DNA from: Candidatus Eiseniibacteriota bacterium
Lineage (GTDB): Bacteria; Eisenbacteria; RBG-16-71-46
Direction of reading: 5' to 3'
DNA: 64,000 bases
Assembly (NCBI GenBank): GCA_036505355.1
Contig: DASXTP010000108.1
Span: 14,857-78,856 of the forward strand
A model generated the notes under the pieces. That model ran no database searches, was not told the DNA's origin, and saw only the letters and a list, made by a program, of their open reading frames with translations. The position numbers and the translations under genes were made by a program. This document shows positions 2,321 through 7,854 of this stretch, in pieces (position 1 is the first letter of the stretch; each line of letters starts with the position of its first letter).

Positions 2321-2505
2321 GGCTCCTCCTTGGGCTGGGCGTTCGCCGCGACGAGAAGGCGCGGACGAGGTCGAGCCTAGCGAGGTCCTCGATCCCGGGC
2401 AACCGCTTCCCGGTTCCACCCGTTCGACGTTTCACCCGACGTGGGACCGTCTGTGCTAAGCTTGTGAGTCGAGGACCGTCCGCGCCTCGCTCCAACACCC
2501 AACGC

Positions 2506-4515
2506 ATGATCCGCCTCCGCTCATCGGCCTCCGATCCTCGCCCCCGGCGCCTGCCCGGCAGCCGATCGATCATCGTCCTGCTGATCGAGCTCTCGATCGC
2601 GACCGGAGCCTTGGCGGCCCAGGCCGCGTCCGGTCTCGCGGACTCGGTGGCGACGCCTCCGGTCGAGACGGCTCGAGACTCGGCGGGGACTGCCGGAGCG
2701 GCCGAGCCAGACTCCGCCTTGGCCGGGGCGTTGGTGCGGGAAGGGCTGGAAAACGTTGCCGCGGACCACTCCAACGGTCACGTTCGCGTCGCGCTCGAGA
2801 ACCGCAAGTACCGGCACAGCGCCATTGCGTTCGGCATCGCCTCCCGTCTGGCCGAATCCCCCTCGATCCTGTTCGAGCGCCGGCTGGGGCTCGAGGCCGC
2901 GGCGGTCTACGACAGCGGAATCGATTCGCGTCCCTCGGTCCTTTACCCGAGTGACGGACGGTTCCCGACCCCGCCCACCGCGGAGCGACTGGCCTCGACG
3001 CAACGGAGCCTCGAGCTCGTCGTGCGTCCGCTGCTCACCTACGAGCTAGGCGAGCTCTTTCACCCGGTGCTCACGGAGATCGAGTTGATGCCGGAGCTGC
3101 GCTACAACCCATGGCCCGGCGGGCGACTCCGTGCCGCCATCGCGATTCCGATCCAAAACGATTTCAAGGCCGATTCGCTGCACCCCGACTTCGGGCAGGT
3201 CCGGCCGGGGCCGACTTTGCTCGAGCAGTACGCCTGGGCGCCCGGGACGGCGTTGCTGTCGGCGACGGCGGGCCTGTTCGGCAACAACCGGTACGGATTG
3301 TCGGCCGGCATCGCGCGCCCCCTGGGACACGGCAGCTTCCTGCTCGACGCGCAGGTCGACCTCACGGGGTTCATCGCCTTCCCGGACAGCGGCATCACGT
3401 ATTCCACGCCGTCCTGGTGGACGGGGTTCGCGGGTGTGACCTATCGCCCCCCCGCATTCGACCTGGCGGTGCGCGCCCGCGCGGCGCGCTTCCTGTTCGG
3501 CGACGACGGGGTCGAGCTCGAGGTCAAACGCACGATGGGCGACATCGACGCCGCCCTCTACTTGCAGGGCACCCGCTGGGGGGGCAGCTCCTACACGGTG
3601 GCGGGGATCCGCGTCGCCGTGCCACTGCCTCCCGCCCAGCGTCCGGTCGGGTCGAGGTTCCGGGTCCTGCCCGCCGAGCGTTTTTCCATCACGTACTCCG
3701 AAGAGGCGCTCCCGGTGGGCCGCTATGTCGGCGAAGTGGCCTCACGCGAGAACTACCTGCGCCAGTTGAGCCCGGGATCCCTGAGCGACAACGCCGACCG
3801 CTACCGGCGAGCGCGGGGGGGCGCGGCCCTCACCCGGACGCACCCGGAGGGATCCCCGGTGTCCTTGACCGGGATGACGGGGTTCGTGAACACGCCCTGG
3901 TGCGGGACGATCCAAGACCGACAGCTCGAGCTGGGCTACAACCAGATCCCCAAGCGGGTGGCGTACGCCCATCGTGAAGTAATCCGCAACGACGTGTACT
4001 ATGCAGCGTTAGGGATTCTGCCACACCTGGAGATCGGCGTTCGCTGGACGTACTTCCCGGGGCAGAGCGCCTGGGGGTTCCTCGTGCCCGATTCGCGCCT
4101 GATCGACTCCGACCGCATGCTGAGCGCCCGGATCGAGCTCCTCGAGCCCAAGCTCGGAAGGCCGGGGCTGGCAATCGGGGTCGAGGACGCCCAGGGGACC
4201 CGGCGGTTCCACTCAACCTACGCCGTCATAGGGGTTCCCGTGAATTTTTACCAATTGCAAAACCGCATAAGCCTCGGCTATGCTCCCACCATCTTCACGG
4301 CGGAGCGCCATGTCCTCGATGGGGTTTTTGGCGCCATCGAGGTGAGGCCCTGGCGGTACGGGGCCGTGAGTCTGGAAAACGACACCGAGAAGTGGAACAG
4401 CATGATCGGGGTCGATCTGGGCTTGGGCTTCAGGGTTCGCGTCGCGCTGTTGGAGCTGGATCGTGCCAGCACGGACAGGATCAGCATCGGCGCGGGGTGG
4501 TCGCACTCGCTGTGA
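2506..4515 (+). CDS. Secreted/outer-membrane protein with YjbH-like domain (exopolysaccharide-associated beta-barrel family)
   Basis: ORF 2464..4515 with probable start ATG 2506 (MIRLRSS..signal peptide..ALAAQAASG). The C-terminal third has GMTGFVNTPW..LELGYNQ..YYAALGILPHLEIGVRWTY. This parallels the E. coli YjbH signature GVGLLQTPTARM..LSLNYR..YYSASVQLFPWLETTLRYT. Confidence 0.55.
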   Translation: MIRLRSSASDPRPRRLPGSRSIIVLLIELSIATGALAAQAASGLADSVATPPVETARDSAGTAGAAEPDSALAGALVREGLENVAADHSNGHVRVALENRKYRHSAIAFGIASRLAESPSILFERRLGLEAAAVYDSGIDSRPSVLYPSDGRFPTPPTAERLASTQRSLELVVRPLLTYELGELFHPVLTEIELMPELRYNPWPGGRLRAAIAIPIQNDFKADSLHPDFGQVRPGPTLLEQYAWAPGTALLSATAGLFGNNRYGLSAGIARPLGHGSFLLDAQVDLTGFIAFPDSGITYSTPSWWTGFAGVTYRPPAFDLAVRARAARFLFGDDGVELEVKRTMGDIDAALYLQGTRWGGSSYTVAGIRVAVPLPPAQRPVGSRFRVLPAERFSITYSEEALPVGRYVGEVASRENYLRQLSPGSLSDNADRYRRARGGAALTRTHPEGSPVSLTGMTGFVNTPWCGTIQDRQLELGYNQIPKRVAYAHREVIRNDVYYAALGILPHLEIGVRWTYFPGQSAWGFLVPDSRLIDSDRMLSARIELLEPKLGRPGLAIGVEDAQGTRRFHSTYAVIGVPVNFYQLQNRISLGYAPTIFTAERHVLDGVFGAIEVRPWRYGAVSLENDTEKWNSMIGVDLGLGFRVRVALLELDRASTDRISIGAGWSHSL

Positions 4516-4624
4516 CCGAACGGGTCTAAGGTAGGCCAAGGACGGGCCTGCCCGGTCAGATCAAGGATGGCGGAGAGCGCAGCGCGGAGAGTAGCGTCAC
4601 TCCCTCGCGCATCAGGAGGAAACC

Positions 4625-5002
4625 ATGCAGCATGCCCGACCCAACCGACTTCGCCGCGCTGTCGCCTTTGCTGCGCTCGCGGTGCTGCTCGGCCTCGTCT
4701 CGCTCACTGTCTCACAGTGCACGATGGTGGGAGACAGCCTGACCGGTGTCGGCGTCACGCGTTCGGCACCCACGACCTGCTTGAAGCAGTGCAACGACTA
4801 CTACGCCCTGCTCTTCAAGTTGGAGCAGAAGCGGCACGACGCGGAAAACGACCTCTGCCAGCAATTGCCCACGAACGAGGAGCGGCAGGCGTGCACGGCA
4901 GCGGAGTCGGCTCGGCATCAGGCGGCCAAGGACCTACTGACCGCGGAAAAGAAGGCGTGTCAGGATGGCTGCCACCACCAGGGTACCGGCAGCGCCGGTT
5001 GA
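4625..5002 (+). CDS. Small exported Cys/His-rich protein, paralog 1 of 5 (unrecognised family)
   Basis: ATG 4625 is preceded by AGGAGGAA. 125 aa with signal helix ending SQC-T, CLKQCND, KRH, two single Cys, and terminal CQDGCHHQGTGSAG. Confidence 0.8.
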   Translation: MQHARPNRLRRAVAFAALAVLLGLVSLTVSQCTMVGDSLTGVGVTRSAPTTCLKQCNDYYALLFKLEQKRHDAENDLCQQLPTNEERQACTAAESARHQAAKDLLTAEKKACQDGCHHQGTGSAG

Positions 5003-5118
5003 TCTGCGGTTACGGATATTGTTGTCGAGTAGTGCGCGGCTGACTTCTCGCGGATAGACCACGGAGGCTGCTCTTCAGCCAGTTGAATAGTTCTTGCCTG
5101 CTACGGACGGAGGACATC

Positions 5119-5493
5119 ATGCATCATGCTGGACGCAAGCCACTGGGTCGGGTTGTCTCGCTCGCCCTTCTGGTGGCACTGCTGGGCGTCGCGTCCATGG
5201 CGCTTACGCGGTGTACGCTGACGGGCGACAACCTCACCGGAGTTGGCCTCAACCGGTCGGCCCCGACGACCTGCATCAAGAAGTGCAACGACGATTTCGA
5301 CAAGTTATTCAAAGAGGAGCAGAAGCGGCACATTGCGGCCAAGGACTACTGCCAGACGCTTCCGGCAAACCAGCAGGGCCCGTGTAACGTCGACGAAGAC
5401 GCCCTGCACATCGCCAACAAGGACGCCCTGACGGCGGCCAAGATCGACTGCCAAAATGGGTGCCATCATAGCGGGACCGGCAGCGCAGGTTGA
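5119..5493 (+). CDS. Small exported Cys/His-rich protein, paralog 2 of 5
   Basis: ATG 5119 (GGAGGA upstream) within ORF 5083..5493. 124 aa that aligns end to end with paralog 1 and ends CQNGCHHSGTGSAG. Confidence 0.8.
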   Translation: MHHAGRKPLGRVVSLALLVALLGVASMALTRCTLTGDNLTGVGLNRSAPTTCIKKCNDDFDKLFKEEQKRHIAAKDYCQTLPANQQGPCNVDEDALHIANKDALTAAKIDCQNGCHHSGTGSAG

Positions 5494-5595
5494 TCCGGAC
5501 TCAAGCAAGTAACGGGGCGATCCTCGGACTTCATCATCCGTGGAGGCAGATCTAGACGGTTGAAGACATTCTTGCCCCCAGGGACGGAGACCATC

Positions 5596-5970
5596 ATGGA
5601 CCGTAATGTCCACAAGCCGCTGGGTCGTTTTCCTTCGGCCGGCCTCCTGATGGTGCTGCTCGGCACTGTGACGCTGGTGCTCGAGCAGTGCACGATGACG
5701 AACGATCTGGTCGGGGTTGGGCTTACGCGAGCCGCAACGACCGGGTGTGTGCAGCGGTGCAATGATCAGTACACCGATCTTTTTAAATTGGAGCAGAAGC
5801 GACACCTGGCGGCGCTTGAGGTTTGCCAGCAAATCGAAGACAACAAGTTGCGGAACGACTGCCTGCAGGCTGAGTCGGCGACGCACGAAGCCAACAAGGA
5901 CGACCTGACTGCCAACAAGATTGCCTGCCAGGATGGGTGCCACCATCAGGGGACAGGCAGCGCCGGATAG
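5596..5970 (+). CDS. Small exported Cys/His-rich protein, paralog 3 of 5
   Basis: ATG 5596 (GGAGA upstream) within ORF 5560..5970. 124 aa, ends CQDGCHHQGTGSAG. Confidence 0.8.
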   Translation: MDRNVHKPLGRFPSAGLLMVLLGTVTLVLEQCTMTNDLVGVGLTRAATTGCVQRCNDQYTDLFKLEQKRHLAALEVCQQIEDNKLRNDCLQAESATHEANKDDLTANKIACQDGCHHQGTGSAG

Positions 5971-6071
5971 TCAGAAAAAAAGAAAGGATCTCGCCACGAA
6001 GTAAGAACCCAGGGTCGCGAAAGACGGAGGGAGCCGGCTACCCAACCCCCTGTGGCCGGAAGGTTAGTCTC

Positions 6072-6432
6072 ATGCACCTTGCTCGACTCCGTCGCTTCAT
6101 CGTCCTCTGTGCTCTCGCGGCCCTGACGAGCGTCCTCTCCCTGACGCTCGCGCAGTGCACCCTAGTGAGCGACTCGCTCACCGGTCTGCAGCCGGCGCCC
6201 TTCGCCTCGACCGAGTTGCGCTGGCCAATGCCGAGATGCGTACCGCGACGCGCTCTCCGCCGCGCGCAAGATCCATCAACGGAACCTGTCGGCCTGCAAG
6301 GACCAGCCGGATCCCCAGGCTTGCACGGACGCCGGGAACGCTCGTTGGGATCAGGTCCAGGTCGACCTGATGGCTCAGGAAGACGCCTGCATCGCCAACT
6401 GCCACAAGCAGGGAACAGGTAGCGCCGGCTGA
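6072..6432 (+). pseudogene. Small exported Cys/His-rich protein, paralog 4 of 5, interrupted by a 1-nt insertion
   Basis: The N-terminal part (MHLARLRRFIVLCAL..LAQCTLVSDSLTGLQPAPFAST) is in the frame of ORF 5937..6422. The rest (SCAGQCRDAYRDALSAARKIHQRNLSACKDQPDPQACTD..DACIANCHKQGTGSAG, stop 6430-6432) is in the +1 frame. There are 31 nt between the TG codons and the first CX3C Cys, against 30 nt in paralog 1. Confidence 0.7.
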
Positions 6433-6530
6433 TCCATCCCCGATGTACGCAACGCCCACCCCGCGAGCCAGGCCCCAGACCGAGCTCGCACCGCTCACGC
6501 CCCATTGAAAGGTTGGAGGATCACGTGCAG

Positions 6531-6899
6531 ATGCATCTTCGCCCCCCCCATCGACCCCTCGCGTGGGCCACGTTTGCCCTGTTGCTCGGATTCAGCTCGT
6601 TAGCCCTGGTGAGGTGCACGCAGGTCAGCGACCGTTTGACGGGCGTGGCGCTCGGCCGCCGGAGTCATGCCGACACCTGCATCAAAACGTGCAACGACCA
6701 ATACGCCAAGCTTTTCGACGACGAGCGCATCCGGCACATTGCCGCGGTGAAAGCCTGCCAGGATTTCTCGGATCGGGAGAAGAACCTGTGCTTGAAGGAG
6801 GAGGCCGCGCGGCACGAGGCCAACAAGCAGGCCTTGACGGCGGCCAAGCGGACGTGTCAGGGGAACTGTCACCGTCAGGGCGGGGGCTCGGCCGGATAA
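6531..6899 (+). CDS. Small exported Cys/His-rich protein, paralog 5 of 5
   Basis: ATG 6531 lies 10 nt after GGAGGA (GTG 6525 is also possible) within ORF 6513..6899. 122 aa, ends CQGNCHRQGGGSAG. Confidence 0.8.
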   Translation: MHLRPPHRPLAWATFALLLGFSSLALVRCTQVSDRLTGVALGRRSHADTCIKTCNDQYAKLFDDERIRHIAAVKACQDFSDREKNLCLKEEAARHEANKQALTAAKRTCQGNCHRQGGGSAG

Positions 6900-6915
6900 C
6901 CTAGGTTGGGAATGA

Positions 6916-6944
6916 GGGCCGCTGCTCCGCACGGGCAGCGGCCC
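6916..6944 (+). terminator. GC-rich hairpin after the paralog array
   Basis: Perfect 10-bp inverted repeat GGGCCGCTGC / GCAGCGGCCC starting 17 nt after the stop of paralog 5. There is no clear U-tract (GTTGAC follows). Confidence 0.4.
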
Positions 6945-7125
6945 GTTGACCTCACGGCATGCATCGCCTACGCTGCCGGCCGTGACCTCGTTCAAGCATC
7001 GTCTGCGGCGCAAGCGCGCCAAGCAAGCCGCCCGCAGGAAGGCCGATAAGGCCAAGGCCGTTCGCAAGCGCCGCCGGTAGAGGTGAGCCGGTGACTCGGC
7101 GCCGCGAGTCCGGGTCCCTCGAAGG

Positions 7126-7854
7126 TCAGCCGATCTCCAGGTACCTGAGATCCAGCGGCCCGAACAGACCGCCGCTCTGCCCACCGAAAAGCTCGGCGCC
7201 GCGCCGCAGATCCTCGGCCGAGACATCGATCACCGGAAGCTGGACCTCCTCCACGGCCGCCAGCTTCGAGGTGGTCGGGAGCGAAATCCGCTCGCTGGCC
7301 AGATAATCCTCGAACTCATCCAGCGTCCAGGCGAACAGCGCATCGACCTCCCACACCAGGTGGACCGTCTTGCCCCGCAGCAGTTCGGGCGGATCGTCGG
7401 GCCCGGTCGGCTGGAGCATGCCCACGGCACAGCAGTCGCACCCGAACCAGAAGTCGAGATCGCGGGCGAGCTTTAGGTTGGTGGCCACGCGAGCCTCGGC
7501 GGGGGCATCCTTCCACACGTTGGTGAGCAACTCGCTCAGCGCGAACTGGTAGCGCAGCAACGCCATCGGGTCGTCACTCGCGGCGCCGCGCAGACCCGTC
7601 GCGAGCACGCGCAGGTTCCGGATCGCTTCCAGGCGCACCCAGGGCGAGCGTCGGTTGGCCAGGCCGGTCAGGTTCTTGAGCGTGCCTTCCAGGCGCTCGC
7701 GCACCACCGCCAGCAGCTCGGCGAAGGTGCCGGAGTCCTTTTCGATGAACTCGACCGTGCGGCGCATCGCCTGGTTCAAGGGCAGGTAGGCGGCGCGCAG
7801 GGTGCCCCAGTCTTCGGTCAGGCGCTGCTTGGCGATGACGTCCCAGTGGGCCAC
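7126..7854 (-). CDS. Hypothetical protein
   Basis: ORF 7126..7914. The composition is coding-like throughout. GTG 7854 is preceded by GGGGGGAA, and the alternative start is GTG 7914. No recognisable motif. Confidence 0.6.
   Translation of the reverse strand: MAHWDVIAKQRLTEDWGTLRAAYLPLNQAMRRTVEFIEKDSGTFAELLAVVRERLEGTLKNLTGLANRRSPWVRLEAIRNLRVLATGLRGAASDDPMALLRYQFALSELLTNVWKDAPAEARVATNLKLARDLDFWFGCDCCAVGMLQPTGPDDPPELLRGKTVHLVWEVDALFAWTLDEFEDYLASERISLPTTSKLAAVEEVQLPVIDVSAEDLRRGAELFGGQSGGLFGPLDLRYLEIG

Follow-up and report, generated by a model that had tools for sequence, protein, structure and literature searches.

The closest described architectures are those of the small Tim/CHCH proteins of mitochondria and of the plant alpha-hairpinins, in which one C-x3-C motif on each of two antiparallel helices pairs with its counterpart across the hairpin to give two disulfides, the oxidation occurring in an extracytoplasmic compartment. 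With regard to gene context, the nearest precedent comes from the group 4 capsule operons of Escherichia coli, where the small envelope lipoprotein GfcB/YjbF is encoded next to a gene of the YjbH family. Braun lipoprotein (Lpp) is likewise a small, almost wholly helical lipoprotein, and tandem genes for it exist, for instance lppA and lppB in Salmonella. Here, we analysed in silico a tandem array of five paralogous genes for small exported proteins, which lies at positions 4625–6899 on the + strand of a 64,000-nucleotide (nt) stretch of DNA, hereafter the window, directly downstream of a gene for a YjbH/GfcD-like outer-membrane protein. An earlier note, made from the letters of this DNA, had described the array and its Cys- and His-rich products.

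The reading that we favour, and consider reasonably probable, is that each copy encodes a disulfide-stapled helical-hairpin protein of the envelope, which is probably lipid-anchored and most likely an outer-membrane accessory or cargo of the adjoining barrel. The signal sequence would end at an invariant Cys, lipidated where the lipobox is canonical, and would be followed by a flexible, conserved linker (x-V-x-D-x-L-T-G-V) and then by an antiparallel alpha-helical hairpin of ~70 residues. After export, three inter-helix disulfides would staple this hairpin into a rigid rod of ~5 nm, at whose open end the membrane anchor, the linker and the C-terminal, Gly-rich tail would all be found. Tandem multiplication to 1–5 copies downstream of a YjbH/GfcD-type barrel gene would thereby place at the outer membrane a set of hairpin proteins acting as accessory lipoproteins of the barrel or as its lipid-anchored cargo.

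Compared with the small Tim/CHCH proteins and the alpha-hairpinins, whose cross-hairpin pairing we infer here as well, the family would have a third rung (C78–C90) closing the loop, helices of ~30 residues and a fixed 21-residue arm. It is also bacterial and has a signal peptide, a probably lipidated Cys, a conserved linker and a Gly-rich tail. Homology to yeast Tim10 was not detected (hhalign probability 1.4%), and the architecture would be like that of the mitochondrial and plant twin C-x3-C hairpins while unrelated to them in descent. In contrast to GfcB/YjbF, the present genes follow the barrel gene instead of preceding it and form tandem paralogues, the locus lacks the GfcA, GfcC and Wza-type genes of Gfc operons, and no match to the YjbF/GfcB family was obtained in the Pfam and NCBIfam scan of the four intact copies at E-values up to 1. 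Lpp differs in being a trimeric coiled coil, instead of a disulfide-stapled hairpin, and in having a C-terminal Lys. Finally, the best structural match, saposin A (PDB 4ddj; Foldseek probability 0.92), likewise consists of helices with three disulfides; nonetheless, this match is non-significant (E 0.39; TM-scores 0.38 and 0.54), and saposins have four or five helices and another Cys topology.

The five-copy array and its protein family

Four intact open reading frames (ORFs) of 122–125 codons, plus one interrupted, occupy 4625–6899. Copy 1 (4625..5002, + strand; 125 residues) is the conserved, "c1-type" member and comprises a signal helix (residues 8–30), Cys32, a linker (33–47), the hairpin (48–119) and the Gly-rich tail (120–125). 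It is followed on the same strand by copy 2 (5119..5493; 124 residues), which equals public-record protein P0001, and by copy 3 (5596..5970; 124 residues), whose public-record counterpart is P0003; copies 1–3 correspond to VGK93_07950, VGK93_07955 and VGK93_07960 of an 82-kb contig from a metagenome-assembled genome (MAG). Copy 5 (6531..6899, + strand; 122 residues), for which a GTG at 6525 provides an alternative start, is represented in the public record by an identical fragment, P0121. A repeat search recovered all five units, with a start-to-start period of 462–494 nt, and found in each of them a 36-nt segment coding for C-H-x-Q-G-x-G-S-A-G and the stop. Pairwise identity among the copies amounts to 34–57% for protein and 53–67% for DNA, values that would make them old paralogues. 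ORFs, repeat search and identities thus agree with the five same-strand paralogous genes reported in the earlier note, and its residue-level description likewise holds on an alignment of the five copies: C32, C52, C56, C78, C90, C112, C116, H71, H117 and the G-x-G-S-A-G end are invariant in 5/5 copies, and H98 is kept in 4/5, with W in copy 4. The overall layout, in which a Cys scaffold comes after an export signal, is supported as well.

Copy 4 (6072..6432, + strand) has a disrupted reading frame, as the note had recognised, owing to one extra base at ~6213 (acc-g-agt). Removal of this base yields a protein of 119 residues that is colinear across the junction with the intact orthologues P0120, which is full-length, and P0132, whose matching segment reads ...LVSDSLTGVESAPFASTSCAGKCRDAY.... 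The extra base may be either an error of the MAG assembly or the mark of a recent or real pseudogene.

Scans of the intact copies against Pfam, NCBIfam, PADLOC and PHROGs returned chance-level matches only, namely OATP (E 0.01), DUF2570, Vicilin_N (Pfam; E 0.51) and one PHROG of unknown function (E 0.022). A PDB profile search with the 145-member profile gave no significant structure; a Tim10-family subunit (E 0.23) and a vicilin-like peptide (E 5.2) scored weakly, merely because they share the C-x3-C pattern. Nothing was found by Foldseek with the predicted model against the PDB at E-values up to 0.001, saposin A being the top entry. A literature search on C-x3-C helical hairpins in a periplasmic or lipoprotein context retrieved unrelated papers only. 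This is thus a previously unnamed family of small exported proteins, and the statement that it was not recognisable stands against curated libraries, PDB profiles and structures alike.

An exhaustive search covering 1.84 billion representatives gathered 275 clusters at 50% identity, mostly of 115–135 residues, of which 168 had E-values up to 1e-10; with a word-indexed search and a threshold of 90% identity, 228 clusters were obtained. The conservation figures below refer to 145 cluster representatives, and the counts of Cys spacing to 265 members. Every match with a named organism came from a Candidatus Eisenbacteria bacterium, and the Lon protease encoded beside one distant member shares 76% identity with its Eisenbacteria counterpart; therefore, the family appears specific to this uncultured phylum, as far as sequence tells. 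A scan of a genome collection added two loci, both in one Eisenbacteria MAG, and most of the contigs with family members derive from soil-type metagenomes. The most distant subgroup ends in the tail C-Y-N-E-G-G-G-x-G-G-R.

Cys register and predicted fold

AlphaFold2 predicted a hydrophobic N-terminal helix (residues 8–30), a low-confidence linker (31–47), two antiparallel helices (48–78 and 84–119) with block values of the predicted local distance difference test (pLDDT) of 90–98, and a disordered tail (120–125); for the antiparallel hairpin, pLDDT exceeded 97. This layout was unchanged between alignments of 5 and 145 sequences. Full invariance across the 145 diverse members is confined to the seven Cys; next come G41, E67, E94, G120 and G122 at ≥90% (E67 in 93% and E94 in 90%). 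The Cys/His scaffold proposed from the five window copies accordingly shrinks to one of Cys, with H71 retained in 83% and H98 in 81% of members.

The arrangement of these Cys is strict. In 246/265 members, the two arms read exactly C-x3-C-x21-C and C-x21-C-x3-C, and additional Cys, where present, come as mirror pairs (63+105 and 67+101), so that the sum of paired positions is always i+j=168. Taken together, the mirror-pair spacing and the predicted hairpin point to three inter-helix disulfides, which would explain the Cys pattern; the most likely rungs between the antiparallel helices are C52–C116, C56–C112 and C78–C90. Of the options left side by side in the earlier note (a heme site, a Cu/Zn site or three disulfides), it is the last that the Cys register and the AlphaFold2 model favour.

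Eight members from outside the window (P0161, P0179, P0188, P0189, P0205, P0206, P0224 and P0238) carry extremely acidic inserts of 30–80 residues, with a high content of Asp, Glu and Gly, in the hairpin loop, and both arms of these proteins retain the Cys register.

A pseudo-repeat, A-E-x-x-R-H-x-A-A-[LV]-x-A, occurs in both helices 27 residues apart, and this offset scores 0.88, compared with −0.55 to 0.42 for all others. Helical-wheel reasoning would place E67/R70/H71 and E94/R97/H98 around a local dyad and would gather I53, Y60, L64, H71 and L75 of one helix and L91, H98, L102 and I105 of the other, along with E67 and E94, on one conserved face of the hairpin, through which the protein is likely to self-associate or to bind a partner. 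Past the last Cys, the tail follows the pattern [H/Y]-x-[Q/E]-G-x-G-x-x-G and then stops, and the end lies at a fixed distance from that Cys in ~89% of representatives.

Export, genomic setting and proposed role

All copies start with a basic n-region and a hydrophobic h-region that ends at the invariant Cys, as expected of a signal peptide, in accordance with the predicted helix at 8–30; this first Cys is found in 100% of the representatives that have an N-terminus. Export through the twin-arginine (Tat) route was considered and discarded, as the twin Arg is missing in copies 2, 3 and 5. The residue preceding the Cys is, as had been pointed out, atypical for a lipobox: it is Q, R, Q, Q and R in copies 1–5, which read SQC, TRC, EQC, AQC and VRC, and among the representatives it is Q in 70%, G in 9%, R in 7% and S in 5%. 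Position −3 is L in 78% and position −2 is T, S or A in 77%. Many downstream copies of other arrays carry canonical boxes (LAG|CTLIGDN, FAG|CTFVGDN, LVG|CTMVGDN and LSG|CTMVGDG) followed by the family motif T-M-V-G-D-x-L-T-G-V. The unrelated lipoproteins of the same loci use LAG|C, ATS|C, LAA|C and VPG|C; therefore, the lipobox is not generally relaxed in the phylum. On this sequence evidence, the N-terminal Cys is probably the lipidation site in the family, and lipidation of the five window copies, with Q or R at −1, is uncertain. The Q(−1) form is typical of the first, most conserved copy, and could be an unusual substrate of LspA or, equally, a site for signal peptidase I.

The latter option leads to the competing explanation that survives best, which we regard as possible though on the unlikely side: the Q(−1) members, including the five window copies, would not be lipoproteins and would be cut by signal peptidase I after the [TSA] residue, leaving a soluble protein that starts with Gln-Cys and whose seventh Cys forms an intermolecular disulfide with another copy or a partner. 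This is consistent with the small residues at −4 (83% of representatives) and −2 (77%) with L between them, which make up a site of the A-x-A type, with a Q at −1 that falls outside the known lipobox in genomes whose other lipoproteins have canonical ones, and with the odd number of Cys, which leaves one free. It has to contend, however, with sister copies that have canonical lipoboxes at the orthologous position in front of the same downstream motif, with the L at −3 and the S, T or A at −2, which suit a lipobox just as well, and with the invariance of the Cys throughout the family.

The YjbH/GfcD-like gene (2464..4515, + strand; 683 residues) ends 109 nt upstream of copy 1, and its product matches Pfam PF06082 (YjbH) with E 2.2e-13 and 50.4 bits (cut-off, 24 bits), the match being limited to residues 470–593. 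The tabulation of homologue neighbourhoods that the earlier note had proposed was carried out on 93 loci from public assemblies, which were not de-duplicated, and revealed four recurrent settings. Two to five tandem copies, always on the same strand, are present in 57/93 loci; a YjbH-like homologue lies immediately upstream of the first copy in 31/93, and 12 more have DUF6982 downstream and lack the upstream sequence. Setting A (~43/93 loci) has the order FKBP (− strand), YjbH-like gene, 1–5 copies, DUF6982, a protein of 242–262 residues (− strand) and M29 peptidase, and this order is also encountered around a member that is present as a single copy and shares just 39% identity with copy 1. 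In setting B, the array is followed by AtuA; in setting C, one copy stands between PEBP and a coiled-coil protein, and in setting D, between a sigma-54 activator and an fn3 lipoprotein. Distant members are monocistronic and have unrelated neighbourhoods (HSP20-Lon; malate synthase with a SPOR-domain gene). In every array examined, the first copy after YjbH is c1-like (39–72% identity to copy 1), and later copies diverge faster.

The window represents setting A without DUF6982 and with two extra genes between FKBP and the YjbH-like gene, namely a TPR gene (964–1461, − strand) and a gene of the DUF6627/PA2779 family (1919–2419, − strand; NCBIfam NF033919, E 2.4e-22). Syntenic loci such as L004 have neither, so that the pair is seen as a local insertion beside the barrel gene.

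GfcD of E. coli, the prototype of the barrel family, has the lipoprotein GfcB and GfcC as joint binding partners (PMC8592465), and a model of GfcD features a lateral gate for molecules with a lipid anchor (PMC11494523). By analogy, the adjacency to YjbH and these two precedents make an accessory or cargo function a reasonable hypothesis, and an outer-membrane structural or accessory role tied to the YjbH-like barrel is our best guess. Several points weigh against the favoured reading as a whole. The YjbH match spans only ~120 residues of the upstream protein. Loci without a nearby YjbH exist, both as arrays at AtuA and as single copies at PEBP, at the sigma-54 activator, at HSP20-Lon and at malate synthase plus SPOR, and the adjacency is thus conserved and not obligatory. 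Q or R at −1 (5/5 window copies; Q in most representatives) misfits the lipobox [LVI][ASTVI][GAS]C, and [TAGS]-L-[TSA] at −4, −3 and −2 also suits a cut by signal peptidase I just before the Q. The disulfide pairing is deduced from spacing and model, and the favoured reading leaves the near-invariant tail, E67 and E94 without explanation.

A bolder form of the barrel link, which we consider doubtful, would have the hairpins as clients or partners of the GfcD/YjbH-type barrel that are inserted or flipped to the cell surface, with the linker and the Gly-rich tail as recognition signal and the L-S-Q-C box of the first copy as a sign of non-standard processing. The array would then amount to an Eisenbacteria-specific module for the display of surface lipoproteins, in which the rapidly diverging downstream copies provide the surface variants.

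The conserved Glu and His residues could also be read as metal ligands. A periplasmic protein that binds Cu, Zn or Ni, or one of metal stress, would employ E67/H71, E94/H98 and the C-H-H tail, perhaps in a dimer of hairpins forming a four-helix bundle, functionally like ZraP or CnrX. E67 and E94 are indeed near-invariant, H71 and H98 follow one turn later on the conserved face, the tail is frequently H-H-Q-G-G-G, and CnrXs is among the Foldseek matches, albeit at the non-significant E-values of 2.6–3.6. We nevertheless hold this to be quite unlikely: H71, H98 or both are missing in 24% of members, seven of which lack both and one all three His, and their replacements (Y, F, L and N) are typical of a packing residue. 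Moreover, metal-resistance or transport genes are not conserved in the examined neighbourhoods, and neither sequence nor profile searches (Pfam, NCBIfam and PDB profile) matched a metal-binding family. Co-variation of the His, as expected of a joint ligand site, was not significant (Fisher p 0.16–0.28). A metal site in most, not all, members is a minority possibility.

A tether in the manner of Braun lipoprotein, that is, an abundant helical lipoprotein with its C-terminal tail attached to peptidoglycan, would suit the small helical lipoprotein, the long upstream regions of the monocistronic distant members and the fixed chain end of most representatives. It is very unlikely in view of the C-terminus, which has no conserved Lys and ends in S-A-G, or in G-G plus a variable residue, and of the predicted position of anchor and tail at the same end of the hairpin, which would leave the rod unable to span the periplasm; hhalign against E. 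coli Lpp gave a probability of 1.7%. Still harder to sustain is a function as secreted peptides like the alpha-hairpinins, with antimicrobial or inhibitor activity, or as immunity proteins that protect from an envelope toxin. The C-x3-C hairpin does resemble plant alpha-hairpinins and vicilin leader peptides, and the tandem copies are variable and diverging, but toxin, transporter or effector genes are not conserved nearby, the context is housekeeping and syntenic, PADLOC and PHROGs gave no matches beyond chance level, and the vicilin and Tim matches are far from significant.

The weakest proposal, a variant c-type cytochrome in which the terminal C-x3-C-H binds heme covalently with the internal His as distal ligand, could draw on C-x3-C-H and the conserved H71 in 5/5 window copies, and on heme-biosynthesis genes a few kb from one related array, though on the opposite strand, and is almost certainly wrong: the residue after the last Cys varies (H 62%, Y 22% and others, including T, R, Q, E and S, 16% of representatives; 193 H and 41 Y over all 265 members), and the cytochrome reading is therefore rejected. 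To our knowledge, the proximal His is obligatory in heme c. The Cys of the terminal motif belong to the exact mirror register (22/22 arms) with the His-less C-x3-C of the other helix in the same 246/265 members, H71 and H98 are each absent in ~17–19% of representatives through independent losses, and the modelled helix interface, Ala-rich, tightly packed and clamped, would leave no pocket.

Should the hairpin reading hold, it would provide a structural and cellular assignment for a large block of hypothetical proteins (the 275 clusters at 50% identity) in an uncultured phylum, and the twin C-x3-C hairpin of mitochondria and plant defence peptides would be present in a bacterial envelope family too, with a third disulfide rung. 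It also removes the attractive but wrong idea of a novel heme c protein. The gain is in annotation and not in new mechanism, and the leads that it offers are the conserved pairing with a GfcD/YjbH-type barrel and the conserved Gln at −1 of a lipobox-like site.

Nucleotide-level features and small flanking reading frames

The array block is less GC-rich than its surroundings, as had been noticed by eye, with a measured GC content of 0.58–0.65 against 0.68–0.73 in the flanks. GC at third codon positions (GC3) is 0.74–0.83 in the copies and 0.86 in neighbouring genes, GC at second positions (GC2) is 0.40–0.53, and the spacers have 0.55–0.57. The dip is thus mostly due to the low GC2 and the AT-richer spacers, and a foreign origin of the block by horizontal transfer was rejected, since GC3 stays high and the dip is largely compositional. 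The A7 run at 5975–5981 is present, and a GGAGG-like ribosome-binding site precedes each copy.

The motif shared by the spacers before copies 2 and 3, TTGAA...TTCTTGCC, is real (2 matches vs 0 expected) and measures 16 nt at 5083–5098 and 17 nt at 5560–5576, the two differing by a 1-nt indel. Its interpretation as a repeated promoter found no support, as a site scan of 4300–7300 gave no sigma-70-like promoter, and the motif looks like ordinary leader sequence of paralogues. Over the same range, a consensus terminator scan found none tied to the genes, the sole terminator-like site being on the − strand. A perfect 10-bp inverted repeat (GGGCCGCTGC / GCAGCGGCCC, with a 9-nt loop; 6916..6944, + strand) was read from the sequence just past the array; it is terminator-like without a T run, and the scan missed it because of the lack of this tail.

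The 5' leader of copy 1 (4530..4624, + strand; ~95 nt) is conserved as DNA in 26 distinct loci, among them loci whose proteins share only 48–72% identity. Counterparts lie at 4005–4103 of L004, 7904–8000 of L007 and 469–568 of L026, and in 22 further loci. The consensus reads ...GGCAGGyC-CAAGGACG-GrCCTGCC...GGAyGG..GAGCGCrGCGCrGAGAG..(loop)..CTCyTCGCGCGTAAGGAGGAA..ATG, and its alignment, folded with alifold, contains two recurring hairpins with a few co-varying pairs. Single leader sequences fold no better than shuffled ones (z −0.4 to −1.0), and Rfam has no match for the leader. Occlusion of the ribosome-binding site by the leader found no support in minimum-free-energy folds. The conserved stretch could represent a leader RNA, a hairpin for processing or termination of the YjbH transcript, or a site to which a protein binds.

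Downstream of the array, DUF6982 follows in most setting-A loci (e.g. L004, 6165–6614) and is absent from 6900–7125 of the window. Its product presumably is cytoplasmic, given a sequence without signal peptide, and a literature search found no paper on it. A very basic small ORF of 32 residues (VTSFKHRLRRKRAKQAARRKADKAKAVRKRRR; 6982..7080, + strand) has homologues in the same position in L006 (5275–5373) and L014 (4130–4231). These ORFs of 32–33 residues lie just downstream of the array or of DUF6982 and conform to M/V-T-S-F-K-H-R-L-R-R-K-R-A-K...R-K-x-R-R; no Pfam or NCBIfam model matched the window ORF, which is reminiscent of tiny ribosome-associated proteins. Arrays of setting B (L007, ~7391–7483; L036, L040, L042 and L062) have an upstream ORF of 21 codons, MQHARPERVHRAVADSLLLAP followed by a stop, ahead of the first gene. 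This ORF mimics the N-terminus of the family, and its TAA stop overlaps the ribosome-binding site (TAAGGAGG) of the real gene; it may be a remnant of duplication or a leader peptide.

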